Shown here: positions 1,518-60,790 of the stretch, one piece after another
How the letters are laid out: each line of letters opens with the position of its first letter
How positions within the stretch are numbered: the first letter of the stretch is position 1
NCBI GenBank assembly: GCA_030390025.1
Contig: CM059430.1
Coordinates: 67,890,001 to 67,954,000, forward strand
Length of the DNA stretch: 64,000 nucleotides
Origin: Squalus acanthias
Lineage: Eukaryota
Reading direction: 5' to 3'
Program-made: the position numbers and the translations under genes
The notes under the pieces: generated by a model
Seen by the model: only the letters and a program-made list of their open reading frames with translations
What the model was told of the DNA's origin: nothing
The model's database searches: none

Positions 1518-1688
1518 CTAATTGATTCTTACTTCTGCGTAGACAGCCTCTGTTACTCGTCTTTGTTTTTTTGTCCGCAGCTGGGCATATTCTGTCCTTT
1601 CATTATTTTTGCATCTCCCGGTTTTCTCTGAGCCAGTCAATGCTATAGTCGTGTACGTCAGCTTGTCACGCCCTGTCCCTTGTTCGGT
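1518..1688 (-). CDS. Gene A exon 7 (terminal cytoplasmic exon; LTYTTI, TEYAQL, AVYAEV)
   Basis: Acceptor ggcttcacag|ACC; TEQGTGRDKLTYTTIALTG...TEYAQLRTKK...AVYAEVRIN*. Confidence 0.85.
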   Translation of the reverse strand, partial: TEQGTGRDKLTYTTIALTGSEKTGRCKNNERTEYAQLRTKKQRRVTEAVYAEVRIN

Positions 1689-4600
1689 CTGTGAAGCCAA
1701 TGTTTGGAAATATTGTTAATTGTTCATTTTGTAAGTTTTGTGGACTGCTGCTCAAAGCAGCCATCAGAAGGTCACACAAATAGGCATAGATACAACACAC
1801 GGTCAAAGTCAGCACAAACATATGCCCTCCACTATCGCATGAATGTTGATGTAACACCGGTGATCTATGTTTCTCTGATCTGTTACTCAGTCCTACCTCA
1901 GCGTATACGGTTCTCTCCTCTTCACGTTTATATCTTGGTGTTTTCCTGGCTCTGCTCAAATTTAGTGCAGCATAATGCATGAACTCAGCCGCTGCTCCCT
2001 GCATGGGTCCGAATGAAAATTGTTTGCTTATGTGGCTAGTTCATTTTCTTCACCAGTTTACGTGTCGCTGATCAAACAATTGAACAGATAGAACTGAGCT
2101 AGAGATCAAACGCACAAACCCATTTCAGATATATTTACATAGGTATGAATATTAAGGAACTGTGATCACTATAACGAATATTTAAACATGTCAATGTTCA
2201 CAGTACAACACAGTGTTACAGAAATGTTTAAATGAGCGGCAGCTTTAGAACGTAAAGTTTTTTTTCAAATCCAAAGATTAGATAATTGTATAAACATTCA
2301 TTACCTAGGTGTATTTTCAACAAAAAACAGCAGTTTTCTTGTCTGCAATTTAACAATTTTTACCAGCAACGCACTGGGTGCCAAGTACATTTCTAACCAC
2401 GATTTGAATCACTCACTAAGACCGGATAAATACTTTCAGTAAATAGAGTTAAACTGTTCTGTCGTGACTATGATATAATATTTCCATCATAGCAATCTTT
2501 CTTGCCATTTTAACCGTCTGCCGGGATGAACGAATGAACGTACCAGCTCTTCACGGTGGTTCGACCCCGTTGTACATTCTTTATTACCTGGAAATGAATG
2601 AAATTTAATGATATTGAAAGATTGAAATATTTACTCAGTTTCCATGTCAGCGATTGCAAAGACATTTCTTGAGTCAGAACAAAGCAGAACATGATTTCTA
2701 ATTTCGGATTATGCCGAGTGTTTGAAATCATAGCCCTTGTTGTGATCAGCAATGGTGCATTGTATCGATATTTTTATGAAACTAAGGGAAACTTTTTGGA
2801 CACTAGGTAAATACAGGGATATGAGGATAGGGTGGGAAAGTGAAAATGAGGTAGAAGATCAGACATGAACATATTGCATGGTGGAGCAGGCTCGAGGGCA
2901 GTATGGCCTACTCCTGCTCTTGTTTCTTATGGTCTTATGTGTGCAACCATTGCCCGGCCGGAGTCTCACACTCTTTCACTCAAACTCGCTGCGCATCCAC
3001 AATAGAATGGGTTGGAATGTGATGGTGTGTCAGGGTACATGTCATTTGTCGTGCTGCAAAGTGGGCATTTTTATTTCAAATATCCAGGTAATTACCTCAA
3101 TTTTTATTACGATTCTGTGAGCATTCCTGCGTTTTCAATTACATTTGGAACATTTGGCGCTCCTTGAAAACTGATAACTCGGTTTTCAACTTTAATTCCT
3201 AATCAATTTCTCTTTCCCTCGTATTATCCGGAGACTGTCGCTAGCCGTGGGGTTTTGAACTAAAATCAAGGGCTTCATTAGAACTTACTTTCATTATTCT
3301 GCAATCGGCACCGCCTCCCAATGCAGATCATTAGCACTAGAAAAGCCAATCCACCCACCGCACACCCAGGAGCCCAGAAGTAGAGTGAATTATCGAAAAT
3401 ACCTGCAAAATTAATAGGAACATTAAGTTATGACGGGCGTTGGCTAAACATAGGCCTCAAGATAGTTTATTGGTTGAACTATGGCGATGCTTTCAGTAAC
3501 TCCGCAGTAAAATATTTGAAATAACTTCGTCATCCGATGGATGAGACATTCTGGATTAATCTGCGCATCGCACTACCGGTTTAGGGATCTCACAGCATTG
3601 TTTTCGGAGAGTTAGATAACCAGAGAGATCAATTTCCCATGACCAAAAGATGTGTTCTTGTGCTTGAACTTTCTTATTTATTAACATATATTTTGAGGAA
3701 ATTGGAGGTAATTTTGTCACAAGCGTTTCTTCGTTGCCCGGTCAAAATTCGGGATTGCAGCAATCGGTTAAAAATCCCCTTTCAATTACCGGAACTGTGT
3801 TTTTTAAAGTAAGAATGTCATTTACTAGTAAAAGATATCAACGGGCGATGGTTCATTGATTATTGTCTTGCGGGGCAAAGAATTGTTCACAATATGACGT
3901 ATCGTACCGGTTGTACTGTTGCGAGGTTGCGGGCACAGTTTATGAGGTTTATGAGGCAGATCCCAATTAAACCCGCTCTGACATGGACGGGTGAGCGGCA
4001 AAAGTTGGCCAGGGGGTCAATTTCAGAACACTGCACTAGAAGTAGCCGAAATGAGGGTCAGGATAGGGAACTGCATTGGGAGCCGCCCGATTACATATGA
4101 CTGCAGCTCCTGGTAACAGCCTTGGTGCTAGGAAAGCGGGCCATGGTAAAGAATAAAAGAATCAGCAAATTGAAACAAAAGAAACTGAAACATTATTCAT
4201 TATAAGGAGGAAATATAATCGGATGGAAAAGATAAACTTCTGTTTATAGTTGTTTTATCAAATAAAGGAATTTGAAAGCAAATAAGGTTTGTCTGAGAAT
4301 ATTTGTGTGGCGGGCGATATAACCTGGTTTTACAACACATCGGGTTCAATTATTTTGTTCATTACAACATGAAATTAATGCTTTCGTTAATATTTCCCAT
4401 GAGATTTGCGTGGACATTTTTCATGATTATTAATATCTACAAACTGTCCGATATATCTCTTTTAAAAACTAGCAGTAGCTAGCTGTCCTTTTTGGACTGT
4501 TGGCCTCGTACCTTCATTGTATTTAGAAAGAACATGGGTGACAACAGCTGGAGTCTCGAGGGAGACATGAGAAACCAAACAAGTATAATTGGCGTCGCTC

Positions 4601-6389
4601 GGAACCGGCTGTGTCTCAACCAAAGACCTGGAAACTTCAAAAAGTCCCTCCGTGTTCTGTTCTTTCCTGGTATCTAATCCTAATGCAGTTTCGACGCCAT
4701 TTTTATACCAAGTCAGGGTGAAATTCTCCGGAAAAAACGCAGACGTTTTACACACAAGAGTCAGATACGCAGATGAATTCCTTTCAGTGGAGACAATCTT
4801 CAGTGGGGTTGGGGCCGCTGCGGATTGAACGAAATCGATTTACTGGGCACCATTGGGAGATTAAATATGATTCTGATTCACGTTTCGTCCATTTTATTAT
4901 AATAGCACCATAAAAAAGCGCAGCCTCCTGTTCCTTTAATGTTACGCACATCATCTACACACACCTGATCCATATCTCTCATAGACATCCCCATCTGTTC
5001 AATTGTACCTGCGCTATCAAGTCCAAGATTTAAAGTTACTCAGCAGACAAGTCGCAACGATTGGCTAATCAATGTTTGGTTTTCATCGTCCAAAGAATTA
5101 AGTAAATAAACTCGGGGGAAGTTGGCGCGCTGAGTCCCTCCGTGTTTGTTAGGGATAGATAGACAGTGACCAGTAATCTGCACATTGTTGATGATTAAAC
5201 GGGTCCTTAGTCGGTACCGCACAGATTTCACAGCCGAAGCATGACAATTGGTGACAGAAATTATGCTCGGTTGAACCTCAGGAGGTTTCGGTAACACAAT
5301 TCCTCTGTATTGCTTCAGTTATTGGAGGTTAGTCAGGTGACAACGTTGTGTGTTCCAAGCTCCAGCTTGTTGAGTGAAGCCGTTGATCAACAGTAGTTTC
5401 ACGCCGGCTTTCTAATCCTGACGCTTAAATTATGTGAGAATTAATTTCTTGAATGTTAAACCTCAAAAACAGCAATGAGGGCAGGCAGGGCATCAGAAAT
5501 GGGCTGAGAGCCGTGTATATGTTGGGAGAGACGCATTAATGCAAACGATTTTCAGTCAGTTATATGCTTGAAATTTGTTCCGAACTTCCGCTATCAGACA
5601 GCAGGTGTGCAAATTGTGGAGTTATAGTCTAATTGGTTAATATTGATACATTTTGCAGTACTCTGCCTGTGACATTGATTATCTAATTAGCAGTTCTATA
5701 CAGAGCACACGAACATACAACTTGACTTACTGCGAGATATATTAATAGACATGTTTATACTGCCAAAAACTTTGCAATAAAACAATCATAAAACATTCCC
5801 GTTTGTTATTTTCGATATATTTTCGACTGTGCCGCTCTCCTGTATTTCACACTTACCATGCGCAATTAGATGTGATCCGGTTCCATTTCCTCGAATTATT
5901 CCTTGATGCAACACTGCACACTGATAGACTCCAGAGTCTTGGATAGTCGCGCTCAGCAACTGAAAGGACCCGCTCCCTTTACTTTTCAGATCAAATTGTT
6001 TTCTATTTTCGGCGCTTGTGCGCAGGTATTCATTCTCACCCTGTTTCCACCAATACACTCTTACCCAGGAATTGTCCTGGGAGATGGGGAATATGCAGTA
6101 GAAGGTGATGTTCCCCCCTCTGGATACAGTCGCTTGTTTGGGCGCTTGAGTTACAATGAACGAAATCTGGTCCGCTGCTGTTAGAAAATATAGTCAAGTA
6201 CAGGTTAATTGTATTAGACACGTCATGGAGTTGGAAGAGAGAAAAATAATCTAGATAGAGGAATTACAGTTCACTAAAATAATGTGCAAACTACCTCGGA
6301 AGAATTTTATAAATTAAAGTAGCTGGGTCAATGAACAAAGATGTACCTGTGTAAATAACTCCCTGGAGAGTCAGGCACAAAAAAAGCAT
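1518..6389 (-). CDS. Gene A: non-rearranging VJ-C1-TM receptor with ITIM/ITSM-like tail (SIRP-like/VJC1-type IgSF), 366 aa, 7 exons
   Basis: Hand-spliced exons 6389-6347, 6177-5857, 4817-4512, 3402-3289, 2587-2544, 1998-1897, 1688-1518 total 1101 nt, in frame, all GT-AG, phases 1,1,1,1,0,0. Each exon has a homologue in gene B. Confidence 0.85.
1897..1998 (-). CDS. Gene A exon 6 (cytoplasmic; MHYAAL, TVYAE)
   Basis: cccatgcag|GGA GCA...GCT GAG|gtagga; homologous to gene B exon 59072-59182. The acceptor position is inferred (see findings). Confidence 0.7.
2544..2587 (-). CDS. Gene A exon 5 (44-nt juxtamembrane cytoplasmic exon)
   Basis: cattcatttccag|GT AAT AAA...GAG CTG|gtacgt; same length and phases (1->0) as gene B exon 58121-58164. 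Confidence 0.8.
2790..2939 (+). mobile_element. CR1 LINE 3' tail fragment (intronic in gene A)
   Basis: gaggtagaagatcag...ggagcaggctcgaggg...ctactcctgctc...ttcttatggtcttatg, same tail as 56520-56612. Confidence 0.75.
3289..3402 (-). CDS. Gene A exon 4 (transmembrane)
   Basis: ttttgcag|GT ATT...GAA A|gtaagt; GIFDNSLYFWAPGCAVGGLAFLVLMICIGRRCRLQNNE, an uncharged hydrophobic stretch followed by basic stop-transfer residues. Not in the ORF track. Confidence 0.85.
4512..4817 (-). CDS. Gene A exon 3 (Ig C1-set domain)
   Basis: AAPTPLKIV...LTLVCKTSAFFPENFTLTWYKNG...YTCLVSHVSL: C1 hallmarks (CxxxxFxP, WxKNG, YxCxVxH); phase 1-1. Confidence 0.92.
5857..6177 (-). CDS. Gene A exon 2 (Ig V domain with germline J-like G strand)
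   Basis: IVTQAP...ITFYC...VYWWKQ...DSGVYQC...GNGTGSHL; NAGNAG acceptor (aacag/cag), donor G|gtaagt; 321 nt, phase 1-1. Confidence 0.92.
6347..6389 (-). CDS. Gene A exon 1 (signal peptide MLFLCLTLQGVIYT)
   Basis: ATG...ACA G|gtacat, phase 1; homologous to the gene B leader (LFCISLVGVLYR). Confidence 0.75.
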
Positions 6390-9790: not shown

Positions 9791-10429
9791 TAAGGACGAG
9801 AGGACTTCAAAACCCAGTACTATCTATCGATTTCTTTGTTAGCACGGTTTTGTAAGTTCAAGGTACTGCATAGCACGTTAAGTTTCTAGATACATGTGTT
9901 ATGTCAGCGTTGTATTTCAGACTTTATATTACAGCACTCCGTCACGTGCCATTGGACGCATTCAAAGCGATGAAGGCCAGAGGAAACCTGAATTATCTGT
10001 GACCAATAGTTGTTATCAGCTTTGAAGTTGGGTTCTAGATCAACTGATATTTCTGAGCACCGATGTGCTATTTCTAAATAGTTACCAGTGGACATAGGTG
10101 CAGTGCACAGAGGTACAGCACACTGCAAGACAAGGGTCAGGTTAGGATCTTCGGGCAGCATCGTTTCGGAAATCGTCTTGTCGGCCTCGGTGATATTCAG
10201 CCGCTGCTGGCCAAGTCGGTAGACGAGTTTGTGTAGGATTTGGGGAAGTGGAAGGAAATGAATCCATCAAAGTAGGGGCCATCCTTTCCCCAAAACAACC
10301 CGTTAGTCGAAATAAAATGCAGGCTCATTTCATTGCTTTAAATTTGGAGATAACCAGCAACATGTCATGTCTTGTAAGCGGGACAATGAATATCTTTATT
10401 AGAGAATATATATTTTCATAATTCTGACC

Positions 10430-10711
10430 CCGCAATGCTGGGAGTCAGGAGGGTGACATAAGATACCAAACAGATGTAAATAGCCCCGTTCGGGACAGGC
10501 TGCGTCACTTCTAAAGAGCTGGAATCTTCATACAGCCCCTCAGTGTTCTGCCGTTAATGGGTTTTTTCCCAGTTGCGGTTTCGATGCCATTTTTATACCA
10601 AGTGAGGCTGAAATCGCTCTGGTAAAACTCAGCCGTTTCACAAACAAGAGTCAGACGCAGATGAATAGATCTCGAGTGTCCTGGAGACAATCTTTAGTGC
10701 GGTTGGGGCAG
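10430..10711 (-). pseudogene. Pseudo-C1 exon of a gene A paralogue
   Basis: ctgttctgcag|CT GCC CCA ACC GCA CTA AAG ATT GTC... gives LTLVCETAEFYQSDFSLTWYKNGIETATG and QNTEGLYEDSSSLEVTQPVPNGAIYICLVSYVTL, with two frameshifts and no 3' donor. Its upstream intron (similar to gene A intron 2) is traceable between TEs to ~16285. Confidence 0.88.
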
Positions 10712-11068
10712 CTGCAGAACAGAGAATTGAGAAAATCAAGTTATAGAGCACGAGTGGGAAGTATTATTTTGATTTGTACAATTCCAAGTCCCAGCATCCT
10801 GTCAATTAATGTTTCCCCACATCATCGCCATAGACCATCCATATCTCATCATCATTAGTTTATGTTCAGTTTTAACTCCGTTATATTTTATGTTCTGATT
10901 TAGTTCTATGCTTTCATCTTTTCAACTTCAATTAAATTTCACTTAGACATATCACAGTGTTAAGAAAGATAAGAATTCGAGCGTTTAAACCTCGGTGACA
11001 GGGGCGGAGATGGACAAAAACATCTAAAGTTGTGTAGAAACCGGTTACAACGTCCGTGCTACCCCATT

Positions 11069-11830: not shown

Positions 11831-11838
11831 AATATTTT

Positions 11839-12995: not shown

Positions 12996-13925
12996 CCTCA
13001 ATGACCTTCCCTCCAACATAAGGTCAGATGTGTGGATGTTCGCTGATCACTGCAGTTTTCAGTTGGATCCGCAACTCCTCAGATAATGAAGCAACATGAC
13101 CGAATGCAGCAAGACCTGGACGAAATTCATGCTTGGGCTGATAGGTGGCAGGTAACATTTGCACCACACAATCATCTGGCAATGACTATCTCCAACAAGC
13201 GAGCGACTGCCCACCACTCCTTCACATTCAACGACATTACCATTGCCGAATCTTCCACCATCAATATCCTGGGCGTCACCATTGATCAGAAACTTAACTG
13301 GACCAGCCACAAAAATACTGTGGCAACAAGAGCAGGTCAGAGGTTGAGTATTCTGCGGTGAGTGTCTCACCTCCTGACTCCCCAAAGCCTTTCCACCATC
13401 TACAAGGCACAAGTCAGGAGTGTGATGGAATACTCTTCACTTGCCTGGATGGGTGCAGCTCCAACAACACTCAAGGAGCTCAACGCCACCCAAGAAGAAT
13501 GAGCCCACTTGATTGGCACACCATCCACCACTTTAAACATTCACTCCATCCACTTACGGCGTACCGTGGCTGCAGTGTGTAGCATCTACAAGATGCACTG
13601 CAGCAACTCACCAAGGCTTCTTCGGCAGCTCCTCCCAAACCCGCGCCCTCTACCACCTAGAAGGACAAGGGCAGCAGGCGCATGGGAACACCACCAAGTG
13701 CCTCTCCAGTCACACACTGACGTGGAAATATATCACCATTACCTAATTGTCGTTGGTTCAAACTCCTGGAAATACCTCCCTAAAAGCACTGTTGGAATAC
13801 CTTCACCACACGGACTGCAGTGGTTCAAGAAGGTGGCTCACCACCACATTCTCAAGGGCAACTTGGAATGCGCAATAAATGCTGGCCTTGCCAGTGATGC
13901 CCAAATCCCATAAACAAATAACAAA
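12996..13925 (+). mobile_element. L2/CR1-group LINE 3' fragment (RT C-terminus)
   Basis: MFAD...WADRWQVTFAP...ATRAGQRL; same family as 16286-19526 and 39473-40272. Confidence 0.85.
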
Positions 13926-13931
13926 AATTAT

Positions 13932-19526: not shown

Positions 19527-19529
19527 TAA

Positions 19530-20134: not shown

Positions 20135-21716
20135 GGATTGCGGCGGTAAGCTTTCGGACGTCAGGGTTTCGGGGTGTGCATTTTCCAGATCGGCAATTCT
20201 AGTAAAAAATAATGCCGCTTTAAAAAATAATGAAGCAAAGTTTTAGCTTTAGTACTGTTTCTTTTCCTAAACTACCGAGGAAACGAGAGGCTCTGCAATT
20301 GTCTCGTGGAGAAAGCAGCAATAAGTTAGGCATTTGGAAGTGCAGCGATCCTCACAGAATAATATTATAAATGGATCGGAATATCTGTGTATTTATAATA
20401 GAAATGTCCATTTTGGAGTAGTTGATATCTGAAATCTGCCTTTTTCACGTCGTCAGTTTTAAAATCATTCAGTCTATTGCGAACTGCAAGTAGGTTGATT
20501 GAAGCTCGGAATGGTGGCATGTGATTACAAATAGTTAAAAGGGGCTGGGATTCCAAACGGTGTCGGATAAATGTGGTTTTGAAAAAGATGTGAGGCTTTA
20601 CACTGACGCTAGAAATGTCTTTGAAATAACGGCCATGATAACTGAGTAGCCATTCCAATTATTTAATTAATTAAATTACATTAATTCCCAGGAAAGTCTC
20701 ACGGGACCTGTCGGTAACTAACGCGGTTCCATCTTTATCCAGGCAGAGGGATCAAATGTGAAAACATTTATTTTACAGTGACGAGGTCTTATCATAATTA
20801 TGTCAGGATACTTTCTAAATCTATTTCATAAAAGCATTTGTCCCTCTTTAGCGATTCAAATCGCACTTCGGAAAAAAATATGTGCCGCCGGGTGCATTGT
20901 TGCTGCTGATAGCTAAAAAGTACAAAATCTAAATTACGTTTGTTAAAATTGTACCGAGCTAATACCTAGATAAGAACTATTTAATGGTTCGTCAAATCTT
21001 GTATGTGGAATATAACTTCATGTAAATATGTTTTAATTTTCTCGCTCATTTAAACACATTTATAACACGGTATATGCAGTGTGAACTTTGACAGTTTGCA
21101 ATATCAGTTACACTGGCCGCACTCATTAACAACCTTGACTTTCACACCTATTGAAATGTATCAACTATGGTTTCTGCACTTTAGTTGTAGCCCCGTCATT
21201 CAGATCAATGTTTGCCCAGAATTATGTAGTCTGGTGCAGACAGTGAATCAACCACATAACACAATGCTTTCATTACAGCCCATGCAGGGAGCAGCACAAA
21301 GCATTCAATTCGATCAGACTAAGCCAAGCTCCAAGACCTAAGATGAGGAGACGAAATGTGTACGTTTAAGCAGGACCGAGAATCAAACGCAGAGCATCCG
21401 TGCGGCGTTAACATTTAAGCGCGATACCGGACTATTTCGACTAGTGCTGACTTTGACCGTGTATTGCATATGAGGCTGATGGATGCTTTGAGCAGCAATC
21501 CACAAACTAGTAAAACAATCAAATAATAATATTTCCAAACTGTGGCTTCACAACGAAGATCAGGAGAAGTCGAAGTACGCGAATCTAGAATTGACTGTCT
21601 CCGAAAATACAGGGATACCTAAAAATAACAGAAGAAGCACAGAATAGTCAGAGCTACAGACGAAAATCGAAAGACAAGTAATAGAGGACGTCTACAGAGA
21701 AGCAAGAATCAAATAG
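20135..21716 (+). pseudogene. 3' remnant of a gene A paralogue (TM donor, exons 5-7 and introns)
   Basis: Colinear with the reverse complement of gene A 3300->1518, including introns (gtgctgactttgaccgtgt; tgctttgagcagca). Exon 6 copy PMQGAAQS... has a stop; exon 7 copy has acceptor AG->AA and TEY->TE*, and ends DVYREARIK*. Confidence 0.88.
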
Positions 21717-23286
21717 CGGGTACAATTTTAGATGCAGAAACCATTTTATCCAGATTTATATTGATCGTACTGCACTATCATATCTGCATGTTATGTAATT
21801 ATAATATTACCATCTGGAGGATAGAGTGTACCTGTAGGATTCAGTAAACATTATCAAGATTCTATAACCATTTTTACATAACTATAATATGTGAAATTGT
21901 ATGTTCAAAACCTAAAAAGCCTGTATAAAATGGCGAATGGCTGAGCTCAAAGCATGATGGGAAAATTATGCCAACCTGACTATAAACCTCTGTTTTAAAT
22001 TACTCAAATAATGGAATGTAGTACTAAGTAAACACGGAGGCTGTCAGGGACATGGAGTTCGGTAATATAATGGAAAAGTGATTGGAGTTGGTGCCTTCAG
22101 TTTAGAAACAGCAGAATAGACAAACTGTTTAGAAAACACCTCAAGAAGTGAAGTTCTAAGATATGGGTATTTTGTTATGCACAGGAATAGGCGTGATGGA
22201 ACTAACGAGGTCATAAGATAATTGACTAGAAAAGGGGAGGGAATCATAGACCGTACTTGAGAAGGTCAGAATGGTGAGATAGCCCAAGCAGCTGCAAGTT
22301 GCTATGTATTTTTAAAGAAAGAAAAGGTATAAAGGAACAGCTATTAAACACTGGAAGCAGCGCGAAACCATAGGATGAGAAGCTTCAGTCAACATAATAC
22401 AGCAAGGGAATAAAGATACCGCGCCACAGTCACTCGGAAGGAACGCCGGGGTTCAATGAACAGACTGCGACTATCTTCTTGTTAAGTATTACTTCTTTGT
22501 ACCTGATGTTTAATGCTTAGTAAACCTGTTTTACTTATACACAATATACCTGTACCCAGGCAATTTATTATAAAGAGCTTTTGAAAGCTACAGATTCCCC
22601 TTCACACCCATCTGTCGCCTCGCCCATTTTAGCATTAGCAGTTATTACTTTTTTAAGCATTTATGAATTTTCGATTAGCAAAACAAATTTTATACACATG
22701 AAATTTTGATATTTTTTCTCTGTACCCGTTATCAGGACAAATGAAATGATAATCACATAAAGTGGCTATCGTTTAAATTTATCCACTCAATTGGCTTCTG
22801 TGTCTTTTGAAAAAATCCTTAAAGTCTTTGTTTCAAGGTCTCAACCTGTCTCAAAAGCTTAGACTTCAACTGGATATTTCTTTAGCGTTCAACCGCATCT
22901 GTGCATTCCCAGTTTCTGTAGTTTACATATTTTTACAGCATGCAGTTTGTGTATTTGGAGCATGCCCAGTTTACAGAATGTCCCAACATACTGCCTGTAC
23001 ATCAATAGGAATTGAAGAGTAGAGGATATGTCCCTTGAGTCCTAAGTGTTTGAGAATTGCGTTGATTATTCCAAAAGACTGAAATAAATTTGAGATTGAA
23101 TTCTCAAATATTTATTTCATGAAAGTGATGACATTTATTATGAGATGTTGTTCTCTGTTGTGAACTGCTTAGACAACACAAGTGAGGGACAGACCACTTC
23201 AGTAGCAACATTGTGACTGTAGTTTCCACAAGTAAAATGTTATGCTTATTAAATTCAGTGGCCGTTCTCCTTATCGGCCATAACTT

Positions 23287-42047: not shown

Positions 42048-42252
42048 CATTAATTTATGAAAATGTTACAGTTCTGGAAAATCAACTAGGGCCGTGTGGC
42101 GGGTAGATGTGTTCCCAATCCGATAGCGCACGTTTCCCACCATAGCCGAACCTGATTTTATAGACACTCACTTAACTAAAGTTACTTTAACAACTATTTC
42201 CATTTTTTCATTTCAACTTTCTGTCTGAAGAGGAAGCATGTGAGGGAGAAAG

Positions 42253-43388: not shown

Positions 43389-43939
43389 TGTTGCCTTGTA
43401 CCTCCCTTTCCCCCTCCCCCTCCCTCTCCCTCTCCACCAACAAGGCAAATAAAGGTACAGACACAATTTAAAGTGAAACAGTGCTCTTTTATTGCAGCAT
43501 TATAGACTTCTGAGGTTCATTGTTGATGCACATAGTTTATAACTTTTCAATGTTAACTAGCTACTTTTCAACTTTGTAAACAATCGGAAACAGAAATAGG
43601 TTATAAAAAAATGTGTAAACAGTTCTGACTTACTTTTTTGCTTCGTTAATGCAATAAAGACATTCAAGATGGAAAATAACTCTTTCCTAAATGTAAAAAA
43701 GTTTTAATGTTCAATTTTTTGTGCAAATAAACAATTTGAATTTTTAAAAAGTGACTAGAGGCTGTACTTTTTCAATGAAAAGCTTACTTTCAGTTTCAGT
43801 GTCAAATATATATTTAAATAAAAAAAAAATGAAAACATGTAACTTTGAAATAAAACGAAAAATTAAACAATTGAAAAATTTAGCCACTCGAAACTATTCC
43901 TGAGGGTCAATGGATGTGCATTGTGGAACATGCAACACC

Positions 43940-44922
43940 CTACTGTCTCTTGCGCTTTCCCGCTCCCTGTGACCGTTGCCCGGTGCTGCGACTTGAAATG
44001 GCCCTGCTTGCCGTCTCTTGCCCTTCAGCAATTGCCTCCTGACAGGGTTGTTGCTGCTGCTGCTGCAAGGCAATGTTTGCTTGCATCATCATAGGCGGAG
44101 CAGGTGGCTCTTGGACCTGCACTGATTCTGCGCTGGGAGCAGGTAAGGTTGGTTCTGAGGGAGTCACAGTAATGGCAGCAGACATTATTTGCATGAGTCC
44201 AACAAGAGACTCATTTATTTTCCTAAGATCCACTCCCAAATCGGGTTTCTGCAACAGTCCAACAAGAGACTCATTTATTTTCCCAAGATCCACTCCCAAA
44301 TCGGGTTTCTGCAACAGTCCAACAAGAGACTCATTTATTTTCCCAAGATCCACTCCCAAATCGGGTTTCTGCAACAGTCCGACAAGAGACTCATTTATTT
44401 TCTTAAGCTCCATTCCCAGATTTTGAGCTATGATATGATCTTTCATTTCATTAAATGACATGCACAGACATTCCACTCCCTGCTTGACCGAGGCAAGACA
44501 ATCAACTTCTTTCTCTGTAAGAGAAGACATCGATTGACTCAAGCCTTCAAGATGGTGGATGTGACCCTGTATCTGCTGTTCTGCTGCATATATATCTGTG
44601 TCTCCCACATGCCCTGTAGTATCAAGCTGCTGTCTGTTTGGCACAGAGCCAGAGGGGCCAAGAGTTGGAGAGGAAGATGGAGAGGACCTCTCCTGCAACC
44701 CAGATTCCAGAACCTCCATATCCAATTCAGCAACAATTTCCTCTTGCTGCTCCTCCACCACCACCACCTCACTCGCATCTCCCACTTTCGAGGCGGTTTG
44801 GACTTCTCAGTTCCAATTATGCATAATCGCTTCACTTCTACCTCGTCAAGAAGTGTGCGGAGATCATCATCACTGAAATTCTGTGTTCTTTTGATAAATT
44901 GGATATTGCTGATAGCAGCCAT
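43940..44922 (-). pseudogene. Harbinger Myb/SANT partner protein, disrupted
   Basis: KRTQNFSDDDLRTLLDEV (SANT N-terminus), then a frame change near 44790 into the 281-aa ORF ending KRKRQ. Confidence 0.75.
44196..44420. repeat. 60-bp coding tandem repeat, ~3.7 near-identical copies
   Basis: Unit agtccaacaagagactcatttattttcccaagatccactcccaaatcgggtttctgcaac; encodes QKPDLGVDLGKINESLVGLL on the minus strand. Confidence 0.95.
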
Positions 44923-51340: not shown

Positions 51341-52552
51341 ACAAAACTTCATTTCAGTTGGCTGCTTTAGATATGCATGACAACCCAAGCCTAATTGATT
51401 ATTATTCTCTCCAGTGCTGGGGCGCTTAGCTCAATCATGCCACTGAAATAATTGTCTATGAGGTCACCTAATACAGAAGACTCCAAGGGTGATGGTTTCA
51501 CCAAATAAGCGACCAGGTCATGGTAAGCAAGCATGCAATTTGAAACAATACAGATATATAGTGAATGGTTTTAGTGTCAGCATGAATGTTCACTGAACGT
51601 ACAAATGTAAACCAAACTCACACCGGAGTATTTGATCAGAGGATGATGCTAATGGGATACTCATAGGCTATGGTAGACACTGCAATCATTTAATAAAAGC
51701 CACCAGGACGGCATTTGTGAATTCAGGTGGATCTGGGAGCTATGATCGGGCAACAGGATTTATGGATTCACTATAACGCACAAAATAACTATTGTCCACA
51801 CGATCTGGCGTTCCACTTTCACTCTTGTTTTCTTATTTGTTAGTTTCAACGTTCATAGGAAATAAGACCAGAAGGTTAATAGGGATGATGTAGGCCAGTC
51901 AGTTCATCCGACAGTCCACCATCACAGCTGAAGTCAAGCGTGTTGTTACATTTGCACAACCGTGGATCAGACAAATAGGCTCCTCCTATTTACAGCAGAA
52001 TGTGAGTAGCTGGATTTTGACATATGCATTTAAGCTCATGAACATGGAGAACTCGATTGGTTAGCGTAAAGGCGCACGGGCATTCAATGTACAGACAGGA
52101 GATTTTTTTCAACTGATCAGGGTTTGCTGTAGGAATAGGCGGAACAAAATACAGCAGTACAACCAATAACGCTTTATCATCACAAGAACAAGAAAGGAGC
52201 ACTCACAGTCTGGAGTTTTCTCCGCGTTTCCGCCAAGAGAGAAGTGCAATCTGGAGGCAAACAAGTTACATGGCTTTCAAGATGCCGCATTTTTGCGTAA
52301 GTGAGTTACACGAGTAACTACAATACTCCTAAGTATCCTAGATCTTATAAGTGGGTGCATTAAACCCTGAGTCTGCACGACTCTCCGCCCACAATATTGT
52401 CTTAACAAAGGAAATACATCAATTGAAATTGAACATTTAGGCACGTGATATTACACTCCACTCTAGATCACGTGCAAACCCCTGGCTTCCAAAGCTCCAG
52501 GAGTTTAGTGGCTCCTTGCAGCTTATGGCCAGTCGAATGTTCGTCACTCAGA

Positions 52553-52607
52553 ATGACGGTGAGCTCCGCGCTTTTCTGCATATCTTTGGTGGGAGTTCTT
52601 TACAGAG
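52553..52607 (+). CDS. Gene B exon 1 (signal peptide MTVSSALFCISLVGVLYR)
   Basis: Hydrophobic leader; AGA G|gtgtgt, phase 1. Confidence 0.8.
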
Positions 52608-55600
52608 GTGTGTTTCTTTATCTTACCGCTCCATGCTTATCGAAAAAAAGTTAATGTTAAAACAATTTATCATATTTTGTGCACATTTCTTTCTTCCGTT
52701 TTTCTTATTGTGTTATTAATGTGGTTAATTTTCTTGTTTTTTTTAAATTTCTGAGTCATTATATTTGTTCTTTTTCGAAAGTATGCAAACTATTATGTCA
52801 GCATTTTTGTTTATTTTCTGATAGCCGCTGAAGTAACTTCGATCAAAGTGGATCAATTCCCGAAATACATTAAGGTTGCCAGGAATACAAATGTTTCCAT
52901 GTTCTGCACATTTCCCATATTTCAAGATGCCCCCGATGTTTATTGGCGGAGATGGGGCGAGGAGACGTTCCTGGAGCCAGACAGGAGAAAGCAATTTAAT
53001 GTAAAAAAGGGAAGTGGTTCATTTGATCTCCTGAATGCGAGTGTCGCCGACTCCGGATTGTATTACTGTCAAGTAAAACATCATCAAAAATCTATTGGAG
53101 ATGGAAGTGGCTCCCAGCTTACTGTGTACGGTAAGTGTCATTGTGACGGGGAGTGGGAGATTCTCAGCAGTGTGCGATATATGTAAACATCAATAGTGGG
53201 GGGAATTTGAACTTTTTTCACTTGACGAAAACCACGTGATAGCAAATTCGTTTTAAAATTCTCCCAATTTTCTTTTCCATTGACCCCGGTGTACAACTGC
53301 CCGCCGATTCGCTAGCGCCCGGTTTCCTCTACTGCCCCAGATCAATTTTACCCCTTCATTGTCCGCATGACATTCCAAAGTGCTTTGCATCCAATGAGTT
53401 CTTTTGGAATTGCAGTTACAATTATTAAGGAGGCAAGATACTGAAATAGTACAAATGTTTAAATCTTGGCTTGAAATTAATAACTGGGATTAGATGGCCA
53501 AATTCCTTCTCACCAAAATAGCGATACCAAGGAACGACAATGGGAACAATTCTAAAACCTCCGAGGTCAGGTATTTTATACTTCATTAAAGGACAGCTCC
53601 GCCGCCCCAACAAGGTACCTTCATCACAAACTCAACAGAACAATGTCCTGCTACAATCGTGGTTATTGCACACACCAGGGAACATTTGGGCCCCACTACT
53701 TAAAATTGCCAATTTAATATTTTCTGTGCAGAATTGTCCAAAATCTGGAATTCTCTCTCCAAAATGGAGGTGGATGATGAGACAATAGGAGCTTCCAAGA
53801 TTGACATGGATAGATTTTTGTTAGGTGGGGTTATCAAGGAATATTGAGTTAAGTGGACAAATGGATTTGAGGTACAGATTAGCCATCATCTAATTGAATG
53901 GCGGAGCAGACTCGAGGGACTAAATGGCTCCTCCTGTTCCTCTATCCGCAGTTTAGGCTGTGCACTTGCTTTCATTGAGAACTTTTTTGAGACTGCCAAA
54001 CTAATTTCACAAAGGAATCTTATAATCCATTGAAAGGGAAGTGTTGGTCTTACCCTCAATGCTGGATTCCACCCTAAGTCCTAGACCTTGCACGAGAGTG
54101 TAGTAACCCAATGATACTGTTTGAACATCTGTCTTACGACAATTGGACTTTCTTTCATACACTCACAACCTGTAAAGTACGGGCAGATTATCGCCGAAAT
54201 TGCAATAAACGCCTGGGCTCCCGTATTTGCAATTCATGATTTCCATTTCTATTCTACCAATCCCAGACTGAAGTTACGGCAGCAGATTAAGTGAACACTT
54301 TCGTCCTCCTCCTGCATGGAAATTCAACCTCATAACATATTATGTCGAAACAGATCAGTGGTAAAGAATGGAGGAATTCTGAGCTTTGGTTGGGCAATCA
54401 ACACGGTGCTGCTGGGAATAAAGGCTGAAATAACGTTCCAAGTTAATAATAACTCTGATTTAAATGTTTGCTATTGCTACAAAATCGGAAAAGTAAACAT
54501 TTAAAGAAAAGATGTTAAGGAGTTTGTTTGTAATAAATTTACAAAACAATGCAAACCTAATAATGGACTCTACTTCCAGCTAAACAGTGACTGTAGCTCT
54601 AGCGGACAAAGGTTCTCATCAGTAAAAGACGATTGTAGGACAGATATAAGCAGAATCTACTTCAGGCAAAACGTGTTCAACAGACCGAATAGACTTGGGG
54701 AAGGACAGAAACCCTGGAATTATGTAAGACATGCACTCAGACTTAGGAGATCCGATTCGGATTCCCTCATCTGTATGGATGTTGTGATCTACACAGAGAT
54801 ACATTATTACCAATATAACGCTTTCATGAGGTGAAACAAAATCCAGCCCTCGGTTCGCACTCTGGGGAAAGTACATTTAGAGAAAGCTGCACGATCTGAA
54901 ATCTCCACCACAGACACTGAAATGCTGAGTTAGCAACTGTAATGCACGAATATTAATCTAACAGCATCCTGTCTGCAATCTGTGTAGACATCAGAGATAT
55001 TTCGATATATTGGCAAAAATTCTTCTTCTCATTATTCACCGTTTATATAAAATATGTTTCCAATATATGAAATATCTAAAAAGCGACCAATTTTTAAATA
55101 AACACACAAACTGTTTAATACTCCAAAGATTATCAATAAACTACGAGAAGCGGTTTCACTGTTCGTGCAGACTGGGTTGAGCTCTCTCAATTATAGTCGG
55201 ACAGGAACCTCACTCGGAGTCACTGCTGCCAACCACAATCCCGCGCCAATATCTGCTACTCCATTCAGAACAGTGACGCGTGCCACCCTGCATGTTAGCA
55301 GCCCTGGGAGATTCACCCTCTTTTTGCGTACGGTTTCCAATATATTCCGTCATTTTGCTGTGCGCCGTAAAACAATTTATAAAATAAATGGAAACTCGAA
55401 GTTTCAAAAAAACGACAGCGCGGATAGCTATTATGACAGTAGGAATGTAACAGCATAACGAGAGTAGGCAAATGAGATTGTGTTCCTTTAAATTAAAAAA
55501 AACTTTTTTTCTGTTAAAGTTCCCCCAACTCCCCTGAAAATCGCTCCTGTTGAAGGGATTTCAGCGACTTCTCTAAAACTCGAGTGTAAAACAACTGCCT

Positions 55601-58600
55601 TTTACCCGGAGCATTTAGAAATCTCCTGGCGAAGAGATGGTGTCGAAAATTTGACCGGAATAGCAACTGTGAAAAACAGGAACGCGGAGGGACTGTTTGA
55701 GGTTTCCAGCTCGTTGGAAGAAGCACAGCCTGCCCAGAGCGGAGTTGTTTATACATGTCTGGTATCTCATGTCTCTCTTCTGGTGCCCGCCAATGTCAGC
55801 TACACCGTTAATCGAGGTAAGATTGGAAACCTGTAAAGCGGGGAGCGGGGATCTGCTCCAACCTGCAATTACTTATTAGACATGCAGCTGGGTCCCTGTT
55901 CAACCCCGAGGATATAGGGTAAATGTGAAATCTATTTAATCTCAGTGTCACATCGATGGGAACGGTATAAAATATTCCTGATGGTTTGTAAGTGAAGGAC
56001 AGTGAATATCACGCTGAAGAGATCCGCAACGGGAGGTTGATGTGCGAACTGTTCAAAAGTTGAAAGATCATTCCTCCGCAAATTCTTGCCAAATAAAATA
56101 AAATTACGCATCAAATTGATCCATTCTACCAGATTCACTATAACATCCTATATATTTAAATGGAATATATGGAGCTGTTATTGAGTAGATTGAGCCTATA
56201 CTGTCTGGAATTTAGAAGAATGAGAGGTGATCTCGTTGAAATATATAAGATTCTGAGGGGGATTAAACAGATAGATGCTGAGAGGCTGTTTCCCCTAGCT
56301 GGAGAGTCTAGAATTAGGGGGCCAAGTCCCAGGATAAGGTGTCGGCCATTTAGGACTGATATGAGGAGGAATTTATTCACTCTGAGCGTTGTGAATCTTT
56401 GGAATTCTCTCCCCCAGAGGGCTGTGGCTGGGTCGTGAAGTATATTCAAGGCTGAGGTAGATAGATTTTTGGACTCTAAGGGAATCAAGGGATGTGGGAA
56501 AAGGGCGGGAAAGTGGAGTTGAGGTCGAAGATCAGCAATGATGTTCTTGAATGGCGGAGCAGGCTCGAGGGTTCGTATGGACTACTCCTGCTCCTAATTC
56601 TTATGTTCTTATTATGTTCATCTGTTCTCTGCGCACCGTTCCTTCAGCTGTCTGGACCTTAAACTTTGGAATTCCCGCCCTAAACCTCTTCTATATCTCT
56701 CTCCTTCTTTAAGACGTTCCTTAGACCCTACCCCCACCTGTCCTAATCGTGGCTTGTTCTCAAATGTTGCTTGATACCGCTCCTGTGAAGTGCCTTAGAA
56801 TGTTTTACTACGTTAAAGGCGCTATATAAATGCAAGTCGTTCTTGTTGCCTACCAAAAGTTGCAGTAGGTGATCTCTGGTAAGGCTCGTGAGGGGTGGCT
56901 GCACTGGAGAACGGGCGACTTTGCCACGATTTGCAGTCTGTGCCCATCAGTCCGGTGTAGCATGGCTACGTAAAATATGAAACTCCTTTTACTCTTAATT
57001 AACAACCCTCGTCTGCAGAGAGAAGCTTCCTGGGCCTTTATGTAATGGGATTTGTTTTCTCCATAAATTGCATCACTGACTTGCAGTTGCTGTCGTTTGG
57101 TACACGTTATAATCCTTGTCCAGCTGCTGCCCATAGAAATAAAGGGGTCGAGCCCCTCTGACAGTCAGTGGACGCCATCATCTCGAGAGACACCTTTGGA
57201 ACACGCCCTCCCGTTCCGGACCCATGAGTCCCTGTCGTTATATGTCTCTATTTTCTACAGTTTCTTATTTCAATTATCTGTTGATCCTGTAGGGACTGAT
57301 GACAAATTTGCACTGATATTTGGATGTGCAGGGGGCGCATTGGCAATTTTACTGTTGATAATAATTTTGACGAGACTCACATTGCAGGCATCAGATGGTA
57401 AGAACATTTCTTATTTCCCCGAATGCTTTTATTTTCCGCGGTCCAGTTGTATTGTTACAAAACCGAAAGAGCAGGTGAATAGGGATTGATTGTAGACGGA
57501 TAAAGTGCCCTTAACTGCCTGCATCTTCAAAGAATGAAGTTACTACCACAAGAGCGTTATGTGGTTGGCAGTAGATGAATATGACAATGTAAACCGGATC
57601 TTGAAATGTAAATATTTTACCTTCCCATTCGAACTATTCACTCAACTTATACACTTTCATTTTGCAACAACCGGAATCCTTAATGTTCTGCAATGTTTTA
57701 GTATCAGTGCGGGTCCAGATCTTGAAACGTAAACAATTTGAGGTAGATGTTGACTTTTTGCGATCGTGTAAAACGGATGATAGCGAACTGACAGACTGTT
57801 TTACATCTCTCCCGATTTCTATTTGCCTAAATGTGTGTCACTGGGAGAGATGTAAAATGGGCTGCCGTCTCACTATCACCCATTTTACACTATCGGACAA
57901 AGTCAAAGTCTACTCCATTGGGTGCAGCATCACTACGGGGTATGAGAATGTCATCAACAGTATAATGCACTAAGGACTGGCACTTCTAAACACCTTCAAG
58001 CAGATCTGTCCCTTCAGATCTCCTTACGTTACAAAGTAAATGTGACCAACATCAAAACATGTTGGTTTTGCTGGCACACAGATTAAGTTATTCAAGGTGG
58101 ATTTTTTTTCTTTCCTTTAGGCATTAAGAGAAATTCTGTGGAAGCGGGTCAGAGTGAAGAGCCGGTAGGGTGACAATTTTCTTTATGTTCCAAAAAAGAA
58201 GGGGCAGGGGGGGAATAGTAACCCAATATATACATTCAGCCGAGAAGATACTACTTATATTTCATAGAATCATAAACTCTTACAGCACAGAAGGAAGCCA
58301 GCGTGCCTCTTCCGGCTCTTTGAAAGAGTTATCCAATTAGTCACACCCCCTCCCGCACTTTACCCATAGTCCTGCAATTGTTTTCGTCCCAATTCCCATT
58401 TTGTAAGTTCCTACTGAATCTGCTTCCACCATCCTTCCAGGCAGTGCGTTCCAGATCATAACAGCTGGCTGCATAAAATATTCTCCTCATCTTCCCTCTG
58501 GTTCTTTTGCCAATTATCTTAAATCTGTGTCCTTTGCATACCAACCCACCCATCAGTGGAAACAGTTTCTCCTTATTTACTTTATCAAAAACCCCTCCGA

Positions 58601-60790
58601 ATTTTGAACACCTCTATTAAATCTTCCCTTAACCTTCTCTGCTCTAAAGAGAACAATCCCAGTTGTAAGATCCTCCAATAGGCTGGGCTGGCCGAGGAAT
58701 AGGAAAGTGGCCGACGCCACAGCAGGAGTGAAAACCTTCAGGAGAGTAGACAGATCGAGTTAATTGGGGACGAAAGGGAGAAATGAGTAATGTGTAGTAT
58801 TCATAGGATAGTTATTAGCTGTGCTCCAAATCATCCTGATTTTAAATGTATGTAAATAATTTGTGCGCTATGGGTTTCATATTTAGAACATTACTCCACA
58901 ACCTATTGGTGAGATATTGGATAAAATCGTTGAGTGGGACAGAATGTAATCGTGCCCTAATCCATCGGTTACTGTGTGCATACTTAGACTTTCAGACTCA
59001 GTTCCAATTGATGGTAGCTGGCAGCTGTATCAGACTCTCCGCTATCAGTATTTCATGTCTTATTTTTATAGGTTAGACAAGGACCAAGTGAAGAGATTGC
59101 CGCCTACGCTACTCTAAACTTGAGAGACGACAGAGGACCTTCCAAACGGAGACAGGAGAAAGACCACACCGACTATTCCCAGGTACATAGGATTACATCC
59201 AATATACGGCACAGAAACAGGCCATTCGGTCCAACCAGTCCATGCCGTCGTTTATGCTCCACAGAGCCTCCTCCCGTCTCTCCTCATCTAAATCTATCAG
59301 CGTAACCTTCTATACCCTTTTCTCTCATATGCTTGTCTAGCCTCCCATTAAATGCATCTATACTGTTCGCTTCAACCACTCCCTGTGGTAGCGAGTTCCA
59401 CATTCTTACCACTCTTTGGGTAAAGATGTTTCTTCTGAATTCCTGATATGTATGCCCTCGCATTTCTGGTATCATCCTAGTACATCGTCTCTGCTCCCTC
59501 TCCAATGCCTTCAGTTAGAGCGGAGGGATGGGCGCCAATAATATCCAAACCATTCCCATACAAAATCAACAGTGTGAGCTAACATAGGCAATGTTAACAA
59601 TCTGTACAGAAAACTGGGGGTAATTTTGACTTGTGTGCGACAGTGTAAAATGGTGATAGCTAAACGGCATCTCTGCCACTAACTTCAATGGAAATACAAT
59701 CGGGAGAGATGTAAAACGGGCTGCGGACCCGTGTCACACTATCGCACAGTCAAAATTATCCTCGTTTCTTTTTCGGGTCTGGCTGTGATAATGATTGCTC
59801 TGAACGACAAATTGCAAAATAGGAAACTCACCTGATCAGACTCGCAAATATCTCTGTTATAGACGAAGCACGGAACCGGCGACAGACTGACCTACGCCGC
59901 TCCCGTAAACGACACCACGAAAAACGCGAAACCCAGACAGAAGGAGGAGAGCACGGTGTATGCCCAGGTACAGCTCAGGTCATTCATTGAAACACGATCA
60001 ATGTTCTGCGGTACGACACTGAGCCGCAGGAAATAGAAAGATCCCAGGTTTCAACTACCAAGTGTGCTGTGTCGGCTGATCTCAGCCAAGGTTCATCATA
60101 GTTGACCTCCGTGTCCCAGGGATCGGCAGGGGGTGGGAGCGGCTGAAAAGTGCAGATGCGTGAGCAGTTTCAACCTTGGACCCACCGCCATGGGATCAGC
60201 AGGTCACACAGGCTGTCGAGGCTCAGACAGCTTAAAACGGTACATTGCGATATGAGATATACTTAACAGATGGGTATGACATTCCTTTGTCTGTTATTGT
60301 AATTGAAGTATTAACCTGCTCATTTCAATGGGTTACAACAGCAGAGAACTAATTTTATATGAACGTTAAACCGGAATACTTACAAGATTTTTTTCGGGCC
60401 CAAAAATGGGCCCTGGGTGTGGGGGCAACAGATGCTCCTGGAATTGGTGCCCAACAGGAATCATTGTTTGCAGAGCAAGGAGAAACCGGAGAGAAAATAA
60501 AATCAGTACAAAATCTGAATAAAACGGTTCCAATCTGAAGTTGGTAATTGATGAGAGGAAATTTCCCCACAGCCTTTTTTAAAGCTCGATTGCTTCAAGC
60601 AATGAGTGGGCAATGGACGAACGACTGATACCAAATGTTACTTTCACAGACAAAACAAAGACGCGGCGACAACAAGCTGACTTACGCCGCTCTGCAGCTT
60701 GCTGATTCCAAGAAAACATCAAAATCGAAACAACAAGACAAGCGGGCTGTGTACGCAGAAGTAAACGTGAGAAACAAAGAGAGAAGCTGA
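52553..60790 (+). CDS. Gene B: non-rearranging VJ-C1-TM receptor with six-tyrosine tail (SIRP-like/VJC1-type IgSF), 387 aa, 8 exons
   Basis: Exons 52553-52607, 52825-53130, 55520-55816, 57293-57397, 58121-58164, 59072-59182, 59863-59967, 60650-60790 total 1164 nt, in frame, all GT-AG. Confidence 0.9.
52825..53130 (+). CDS. Gene B exon 2 (VJ-type V domain)
   Basis: KVDQFP...VSMFC...VYWRR...DSGLYYC...GDGSGSQLTVY G|gtaagt. Confidence 0.93.
55520..55816 (+). CDS. Gene B exon 3 (C1 domain)
   Basis: PPTPLKIAP...LKLECKTTAFYPEHLEISWRRDG...YTCLVSHVSL; G|gtaaga. Confidence 0.93.
56165..56612 (+). mobile_element. CR1 LINE 3' fragment (intronic)
   Basis: LEFRRMRGDLVEIYKIL...RRNLFTLSVVNLWNSLPQ followed by a ttcttatgttctt tail. 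Confidence 0.88.
56630..56848 (+). mobile_element. L2-type 3' end
   Basis: ttccttcagctgtctggacc...tggaattcc...tgtgaagtgccttaga...ggcgctatataaatgcaagt. Confidence 0.6.
57293..57397 (+). CDS. Gene B exon 4 (transmembrane)
   Basis: GTDDKFALIFGCAGGALAILLLIIILTRLTLQASD; cctgtag| and |gtaaga. Confidence 0.9.
57740..57916. repeat. Short hairpin MITE-like element
   Basis: Nearly whole-length inverted symmetry (ttttacatctctccc / gggagagatgtaaaa; ttgacttt / aaagtcaa). Confidence 0.7.
58121..58164 (+). CDS. Gene B exon 5 (44 nt)
   Basis: tttcctttag|GC ATT AAG...GAG CCG|gtaggg. Confidence 0.85.
58262..58662 (-). mobile_element. CR1 LINE 3' fragment (intronic)
   Basis: tcatagaatcata tail; KGHRFKIIGKR on the minus strand. 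Confidence 0.8.
59072..59182 (+). CDS. Gene B exon 6 (AAYATL, TDYSQ)
   Basis: tttttatag|GTT AGA CAA...TCC CAG|gtacat, phase 0-0. Confidence 0.85.
59205..59510 (-). mobile_element. CR1 LINE 3' fragment (intronic)
   Basis: RRNIFTQRVVRMWNSLPQGVVEANSIDAF. Confidence 0.85.
59616..59763. repeat. Short hairpin MITE-like element (57740 family)
   Basis: ggggtaattttgact / agtcaaaattatcc ends; gggagagatgtaaaa core. Confidence 0.65.
59863..59967 (+). CDS. Gene B exon 7 (LTYAAP, TVYAQ)
   Basis: ctctgttatag|ACG AAG CAC...GCC CAG|gtacag, phase 0-0; paralogous to the neighbouring tail exons. Confidence 0.8.
60650..60790 (+). CDS. Gene B exon 8 (LTYAAL ITIM, AVYAEV, stop)
   Basis: ctttcacag|ACA AAA CAA...TKQRRGDNKLTYAALQL...AVYAEVNVRNKERS*. 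Confidence 0.88.
   Translation, partial: TKQRRGDNKLTYAALQLADSKKTSKSKQQDKRAVYAEVNVRNKERS

Follow-up and report, generated by a model that had tools for sequence, protein, structure and literature searches.

We analysed a 64-kb window of the 3.7-Gb genome of Squalus acanthias (the whole stretch of DNA considered here, C6:67.89-67.95 Mb) and found two intact genes, A and B, which probably belong, as inhibitory members, to a large family of paired, non-rearranging innate receptors in cartilaginous fish. The ectodomain of these receptors consists of one VJ domain, that is, a V domain with a J-like G strand encoded in the same exon, followed by one C1 domain. The family is most likely a lineage of its own, which would resemble SIRP in its working and is not the positional orthologue of SIRP. 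An earlier note on this stretch had proposed an expanded, inhibitory-type VJ-C1 family of cartilaginous fish undergoing birth and death. The family, its duplication and its dead copies were all recovered, but its members are not solely inhibitory, as they are paired with members having an arginine in the transmembrane (TM) segment.

The gene models were obtained by six-frame reading and exon fitting (Table 1). Gene A (6389-1518, minus strand; 7 exons, 366 aa) and gene B (52553-60790, plus strand; 8 exons, 387 aa) both have intact open frames, and share the exon order leader, single VJ exon, C1, uncharged TM, 44-nt exon and tyrosine exons, the last numbering three in B versus two in A. All the junctions are AG/GT, in phases 1,1,1,1,0,0(,0). 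The V exons of A and B match the Pfam V-set (E = 1.7e-9 and 7.7e-10, respectively) and the single C1 exon of each gene matches the C1-set (E = 5.4e-10 and 8.4e-10), in agreement with the exon plan proposed earlier. The two genes are identical at 47 of 106 V residues and 52 of 101 C1 residues. The G strand indeed lies inside the V exon and is followed by a GTAAGT donor. A motif scan found no site resembling a recombination signal sequence (RSS) across the window, as had been noted for the V ends, while a near-identical scan of the same genome detected, as a positive control, a 23-RSS preceding a J-kappa-like segment of an immunoglobulin (Ig) locus. The domain order and the tails of A and B recur in two database models, P0002 (374 aa, from Heptranchias) and P0034 (382 aa, from Heterodontus). 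Three RNA contig runs from the same species (tissue unstated) gave mostly repeat matches to gene A, without splice joints, and were uninformative either way. Two out-of-frame ATGs upstream of the gene B leader (52525-52551) form a possible upstream open reading frame (ORF), and intron 4 of this gene carries a small palindromic element with 71-nt arms (57743-57913), a partial copy of which lies at 59625-59723.

Table 1. Exons of genes A and B, remnants in the window (window positions) and distribution of family exon matches on C6
Feature	Position	Strand	Evidence
Gene A leader exon (43 nt), followed by a 169-nt leader intron	6347..6389	-	exon fitting
Gene A VJ exon, G strand GNGTG	5857..6177	-	exon fitting, Pfam
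Gene A C1 exon	4512..4817	-	exon fitting, Pfam
Gene A uncharged TM exon	3289..3402	-	exon fitting
Gene A 44-nt cytoplasmic exon, phase 1 to 0	2544..2587	-	exon fitting
Gene A tyrosine module 1 (MHYAAL ... TVYAE)	1897..1998	-	exon fitting, module profile
Gene A last exon (LTYTTI, TEYAQL, AVYAEV, stop)	1518..1688	-	exon fitting, module profile
Gene B leader exon (55 nt), followed by a 217-nt leader intron	52553..52607	+	exon fitting
Gene B VJ exon, G strand GDGSG	52825..53130	+	exon fitting, Pfam
Gene B C1 exon	55520..55816	+	exon fitting, Pfam
Gene B uncharged TM exon	57293..57397	+	exon fitting
Gene B 44-nt cytoplasmic exon	58121..58164	+	exon fitting
Gene B tyrosine module 1 (AAYATL ... TDYSQ)	59072..59182	+	exon fitting, module profile
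Gene B tyrosine module 2 (LTYAAP ... TVYAQ)	59863..59967	+	exon fitting, module profile
Gene B last exon (LTYAAL ... AVYAEV, stop)	60650..60790	+	exon fitting, module profile
Remnant 1: lone frameshifted C1 exon, no V or TM exon found beside it; twin (92.7%) at C6:61.766 Mb	10410..10718	-	DNA profiles
Remnant 2: decayed tail with stops, showing traces of two tyrosine exons and of the 44-nt exon; V, C1 and TM exons not found	20634..21733	+	DNA profiles
Single pair, 1 C1 and 1 V	C6:57.5 Mb
Cluster, at least 42 C1 and at least 39 V	C6:61.1-62.8 Mb
Cluster, at least 15 C1 and at least 13 V	C6:67.4-68.2 Mb
Cluster, at least 71 C1 and at least 65 V	C6:72.4-76.9 Mb

In the tails of both genes, tyrosines resembling immunoreceptor tyrosine-based inhibitory motifs (ITIM; LTYxxL/I) are paired with tyrosines resembling switch motifs (ITSM; TEYAQL, AVYAEV), about 22-26 residues apart. 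In database models, the paired modules are conserved from chimaera to sharks and rays. We observed that the internal tyrosine exons (donors at 1897, 59182 and 59967) end in YA[EQ] or YSQ right at the GT donor, and that the last exons (1518-1545 and 60750-60790) read YAEV, where the valine is a GTA codon and, in gene A, forms part of a donor-like GTAAGA. The internal modules therefore resemble copies of the terminal exon whose valine codon has turned into a donor. Read-through at an internal tyrosine exon would restore YxxV and terminate the protein there.

Searches with the gene A exons, with split matches merged, gave at least 129 C1 and at least 118 V exon matches on C6; these counts are lower bounds, as the best 150 of 520 and the best 150 of 212 candidates were scored. 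A V exon on the same strand lies within 25 kb of 118 of the 129 C1 matches. We took a census of the 10 kb around 120 of the 126 C1 matches outside the window, together with A and B, making 122 loci. A bounded V exon was present at 91 of them, classified by rule as intact (68) or broken (23). The G strand reads GxG[TS] in 64 of the 68 intact exons, and the motif scan found an RSS at the 3' end of none of the 91. A clean C1 exon was absent at 30 of the 122 loci, and intact V and clean C1 exons occurred together at 52. Several loci of the 72-74 Mb region (L162, L179, L195 and L197-L200) have V exons that lack the second canonical cysteine and keep the G strand; these may be dead copies or may form a subfamily that lacks the Ig disulfide. 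All the 43 relatives listed for the closest full-length model, which are predicted gene models, come from sharks, rays or elephant shark, and from this span it follows that the family is older than the holocephalan split. Their automatic names include SHPS1-like, SIRP-beta1-like, tapasin-related-like, CD276, NCR3LG1-like, Ig light chain (IgL)-like and MHC-like, SIRP being the commonest label among the shark relatives listed.

The membrane segments divide the family. With three overlapping loci dropped, 119 distinct loci were left, and a TM exon was recovered at 97. By rule-based and rough classes, 49 of these are uncharged, 17 are of the Arg type (arginine near the outer end, D/E/N-H at the inner end) and 31 belong to other classes (10 RYAV, 5 FLRLG, 3 YRSAG and 13 other). 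The tyrosine-module profile matched downstream of 22 of the 49 uncharged TM exons versus 0 of the 17 of Arg type. When only the loci with at least 4 kb read were compared, the module was present at 20 of 39 uncharged versus 0 of 11 Arg-type loci (p = 0.0016), with 0 matches on the opposite strand. In nine database models that have the Arg motif, the tail is 6-49 residues long.

Members of the two classes can have almost the same ectodomain. Gene B and the Arg-type locus L115 are identical at 94 of 101 V and 94 of 98 C1 residues (93-96%), and two further Arg-type loci share 89-90 of the 101 V residues with gene B. At the DNA level, the likeness between gene B and L115 is ∼90% from the leader through the end of C1 and then ceases. 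The V exons of L178 (Arg type) and L201 (uncharged) differ by no amino-acid-changing substitution. These near-identical ectodomains on different TM classes suggest that paired receptors arose here through exchange within the C1-TM intron. The family has, within one cluster, inhibitory-type and charged-TM, short-tail forms of one ectodomain, as does the class of paired receptors. In 21 independent pairs, the pooled ratio of nonsynonymous to synonymous change (dN/dS) was 0.79 for V and 0.62 for C1 (p = 0.045), V changing faster. About 23 kb before the window, the locus L155 (C6:67.864-67.867 Mb) combines a B-like ectodomain (87% at the DNA level) with an Arg-type TM and a broken V exon, and appears to be a dead activating-type twin next to the window.

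The window itself has a duplicate ∼6 Mb away at C6:61.755-61.823 Mb (61755143-61823394; L119-L122), which is 87-92% identical at the two ends of the window. The ∼90% identity of introns argues for a true duplication and not for two haplotypes. The duplicate includes the C1 remnant; its copy of A is frameshifted in V, and its copy of B has an internal tandem duplication that repeats C1. The two pseudogene remnants of the window had been thought to share the full exon plan, which did not hold. DNA profiles of the V, C1 and TM exons, run over the whole window, found only 2 V, 3 C1 and 2 TM exons, so the remnants are partial. As they lie on opposite strands with inverted copies of a long interspersed element (LINE) between them, the two could possibly be halves of one inverted gene; no V or TM exon was found with either. 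Inverted LINE-like copies lie at 13101-13926, 16286-17112 and 39474-40284, and are a possible cause of local inversion.

We compared the V and C1 domains with those of other families. The spacing from the conserved tryptophan to the second cysteine is 41, 43 or 44 residues in 67 intact family V exons, as against 50 (bird) and 53 (pig) in SIRP; the V domain of a shark NCR3-like protein has 52 and that of a shark IgL 59. The predicted model of the V domain (predicted local distance difference test score 88.4) has no C' or C'' strand of at least 3 residues. The domain is short and VNAR/I-set-like, shortened in the same region as VNAR. In Foldseek, VNARs came on top and NKp30 had the highest TM-score (0.79) among the rows listed; by VIA, NCAM Ig1, VNAR, TCR V-beta and NKp30 were tied at Z 13.3-14.1 (within Z 1). 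SIRP was not among the fold-search rows listed, and the fold neighbours in Atlas included CD276, tapasin-related and butyrophilin. The best single PDB matches were VNAR for V and UrIg2 for C1, PD-L1 also being high for V. Profile searches of the PDB were dominated by multi-domain sums and did not rank families. Outside sharks, the family V profile scored best on turtle and viper multi-V ITIM proteins (up to 58 bits), and most reptile multi-V and coelacanth V-C1 domains reached 40-58 bits. The coelacanth V-C1 protein scored 46 bits, two shark NCR3-like V domains 36-37, SIRP 18-25, a UrIg2-like V 16.5 and Ig V 12-15. The C1 profile was undiscriminating, with 35-56 bits across all the groups.

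Trees were built from 41 V and 47 C1 rows, with outgroups labelled from source names, a PDB match or a reading of the sequence; TCR, PRARP and VJC1 sequences were not among the rows. In the V tree, a starred branch (95/82) sets NCR3-like, SIRP, UrIg2-like and Ig domains apart from the family, the Ig and UrIg-like domains have their own branch (91/80), and the B7-like V domains, which lack the G-strand motif, form a starred group (100/100). In the C1 tree, the family members form a single group (86/89), distinct from the SIRP and B7-like rows and from the Ig/UrIg group (84/98). In the approximately unbiased (AU) test, a V grouping with NCR3-like domains was not rejected (p = 0.38), and the shark NCR3-like genes themselves form a separate group on C26. 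The reptile multi-V proteins P0174 and P0120 (turtles) and P0170 (viper) have short VJ domains and, in two cases, ITIM-type tails; they are mislabelled as FCRL5, NCAM2 or otk. The coelacanth protein P0169 has a V-C1 ectodomain, a lysine in its TM and an NKp30-like V. The lungfish protein P0165 combines two C1 domains (C1-C1) with four paired tyrosines; in the C1 tree it groups with SIRP (96/91).

Several observations weigh against reading A and B as inhibitory members of a separate paired family. Only 2 of the 5-6 tyrosine motifs per gene closely fit the strict ITIM/ITSM patterns, and the +3 valine of the internal TVYAE/TVYAQ motifs is removed by splicing. Nineteen of the 39 uncharged loci had no module in the stretch read, so an uncharged TM cannot be equated with an inhibitory receptor. 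The Arg-type loci were mapped as far as the TM exon, which carries a splice donor. The pooled dN/dS, being below 1, does not prove positive selection. In the best V tree, the family V domains are not one clade, the reptile multi-V domains falling inside, and the AU tests did not reject a grouping with SIRP (p = 0.28 for V and 0.30 for C1). Finally, the transcripts, proteins, cell type, ligand and phosphatase binding of these genes are predicted.

The AU tests with SIRP bear on an alternative in which the shark genes are the chondrichthyan co-orthologues of SIRP, with one C1 and on another chromosome, reading CD47 or a similar self marker. A pig SIRP-beta1-like protein, bird SIRP-alpha and lungfish and coelacanth SHPS1-like proteins are among the short non-shark matches (E ∼1e-16 to 1e-17), and the tail of bird SIRP-alpha has the LTYxxL / SEYxx[IV] pairing seen in the shark family. 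Moreover, a strict first search of the genome with bird SIRP-alpha gave 22 weak matches (best 4e-6), 7 of them in the family clusters, none on C11 and no better candidate. However, the SIRP V domain scores far below the reptile, coelacanth and NCR3-like domains on the family profile, and its tryptophan-cysteine spacing lies outside the family range. The position also disagrees. NSFL1C adjoins SIRP in mammals and birds; in this genome it lies at C11:31.0 Mb, away from the clusters on C6, and seven family and SIRP queries gave no Ig-like match within 200 kb on its 5' side. An opioid-precursor search gave one weak match, on C9. A search of the genome for CD47-type genes matched nothing, its controls included, and has no bearing on this reading. 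The SIRP likeness claimed earlier thus stands for the tail and the database labels but not for the V domain and the position, and one-to-one orthology with a characterised SIRP gene was not seen. We consider co-orthology unlikely.

The earlier note had also linked these genes to the ancestor of the antigen receptors before RAG. On that account, they would be living relics, near UrIg, PRARP and the antigen receptors, of the VJ-C1 precursor that was split by the RAG transposon, which suits the single VJ exon with its G strand and without RSS, the short leader intron, the C1 domain and the best single PDB matches; AU tests did not reject a grouping with Ig/UrIg (p = 0.22 and 0.375). Against it stand the lowest V profile scores, those of UrIg2-like and Ig domains, and the separate Ig/UrIg branches in both the trees. 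None of the best 150 C1-set matches in the genome (Ig, UrIg-like, MHC-type) lies on C6, whose markers (AGTR2 at 89.6 Mb, CYSLTR1 at 96.0 Mb and a weak androgen-receptor exon match at 144.7 Mb) correspond to human X genes; on the other side of the clusters are a BLT1-like gene (46.6 Mb) and a B7-like V-C1 gene (33.8 Mb), all these markers being at least 10 Mb from the clusters. The published candidate, moreover, is UrIg2 (PMC12227049, in the portions covered). The link to the RAG ancestor was left unsupported, and we regard relic status as very improbable. Least probable is that most copies are silent, or are B7/tapasin-like V-C ligands or adhesion molecules whose tyrosines serve trafficking or costimulation. 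The high PD-L1 match, the Atlas neighbours and the numerous broken V exons and missing C1 exons would fit this, but the B7-like V domains form their own group without the G-strand motif, chimaera, sharks and rays all retain the paired tyrosine modules, and the Arg-TM twins suit paired receptors.

We therefore prefer the separate paired family. Given its gene structure, copy number, two main membrane classes, ectodomain twins, and recent duplication and death of copies, its working could be modelled by analogy with SIRP, LILR, KIR and CHIR. The short V domain of a leukocyte-borne receptor would bind a self surface ligand, Src-family kinases would phosphorylate the ITIM-like and ITSM-like tyrosines of the tail, and the tandem SH2 domains of SHP-1/SHP-2 would dock on the paired phosphotyrosines and damp activation. 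The Arg-TM twins may signal via FcR-gamma or CD3-zeta; the genome contains FcR-gamma-like and CD3-zeta-like TM exons. These twins could be counter-receptors to pathogens that imitate the ligand of the inhibitory members. Through exchange in the C1-TM intron, an ectodomain would acquire a different tail, while the birth and death of copies would be driven by segmental duplication.

The family shares features with several known systems. Like SIRP, it has a J-like V and C1 ectodomain, an uncharged TM, a tail of two ITIM/ITSM-type pairs and paired activating relatives. However, SIRP is V-C1-C1, whereas A and B have one C1 and the C1 to V ratio on C6 is 129 to 118; the shark V is 6-12 residues shorter between tryptophan and second cysteine; and the arginine near the outer TM end differs from the central lysine of SIRP-beta1. 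Also unlike SIRP, the tyrosine pairs lie on separate duplicated exons, and there are more than 100 copies, none on the NSFL1C contig. NCR3/NKp30 likewise has a non-rearranging single-exon VJ domain and Arg-TM activating forms, but in NKp30 the VJ is directly followed by the TM, without the C1 exon found between them in the shark family, whose V is shorter. With UrIg/UrIg2 and PRARP/VJC1, as described in parts of PMC12227049 and PMC10751288, the family shares a VJ exon joined to C1, the absence of RSS and a short leader intron. In UrIg/UrIg2 there are at least three C1 domains, and the genes are located in the MHC or the Ig/TCR complex, in contrast to the single C1, ITIM-type tails, paired forms and huge cluster of the shark family. 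PRARP and Xenopus VJC1 were set beside it by description only, not by sequence. Rearranging Ig/TCR genes have split V and J with RSS, whereas here the G strand is part of the V exon. Large tandem clusters of inhibitory and activating twins with many pseudogenes are also found for CHIR, NITR, MDIR and KIR/LILR, which use C2, I or CD300-type V domains instead of VJ and C1. Teleost NITR and mammalian KIR/LILR are lineage-specific paired clusters of the Ig superfamily (IgSF). Chicken CHIR is described as another such cluster in the part of PMC1458963 covered. Skate MDIR has CD300/TREM/pIgR-like V domains according to the accessible part of PMC3031540, a description that the J-like V and C1-set domains do not fit; the two were set apart by description only.

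Cartilaginous fish are the oldest lineage with MHC and antibodies and, to our knowledge, the number of inhibitory or paired leukocyte receptors described from them is small. Present across chondrichthyans and concealed by at least six automatic names, a family of more than 100 paired VJ-C1 genes offers candidates for 'missing self' sensing and makes this a testable question in these animals. The paired receptors would here be assembled from antigen-receptor-type domains, with the VJ domain shortened where VNAR is. Paired IgSF clusters with birth and death are already a well-known principle, and the link of the family to the origin of antibodies is weak. The family is likely new in print. We found no description of it in the full-text literature searched (including the accessible parts of PMC12227049, PMC10751288, PMC13262535, PMC11599192, PMC6795676 and PMC3031540), key subscription papers excepted, and a term search of the supplement of the elephant shark paper (PMC3964593) gave 0 matches. 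In the portions covered, PMC12227049 names UrIg2 as the candidate for RAG invasion and does not mention SIRP, ITIM or VJ-C1; PMC10751288 cites VJ-C1 genes for tetrapods and UrIg; PMC13262535 places the origin of the SIRP family at Tetrapoda; and the review PMC6795676, term-searched as far as accessible, mentions neither NK cells nor inhibitory receptors. A bolder proposal, which we hold to be doubtful, is that the 16-Mb region is the missing natural killer (NK)/leukocyte receptor complex of cartilaginous fish, with more than 100 paired, germline-encoded VJ-C1 receptors, whose compact, VNAR-like domain would read MHC class I or another polymorphic self ligand. The lineage would predate the shark-chimaera split, have the reptile multi-V ITIM receptors as distant survivors, and be a sister of SIRP and NKp30 from a VJ-C1 pool that also yielded the antigen receptors.

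The remaining sequence of the window consists of repeats and transposon-like ORFs, and an Rfam scan of the window gave 0 matches. By eye, frames like those of a Harbinger/PIF transposase lie at 42244-44806, with an opposite ORF containing a 60-nt tandem repeat (44190-44421), and GC-rich gag/pol frames like those of a long terminal repeat retroelement lie just past gene B (61826-64000). Among the other Ig-type loci of the genome, a C1 cluster on C13 (52.9-54.8 Mb) was considered as the MHC, but its translations look like IgL and the position of the MHC is therefore not fixed. At C3:132.08-132.13 Mb (L263-L267), there are two oppositely oriented non-rearranging genes with a V and several C1 domains; these were considered as PRARP-like and rejected, their best PDB match being UrIg2 (E = 1.5e-24). 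A second UrIg-like array with repeated C domains is present on C3243. At the loci L257, L259 and L261 there are light-chain VJ exons joined in the germline, and a heavy-chain V that continues into a joined end, apparently out of frame.

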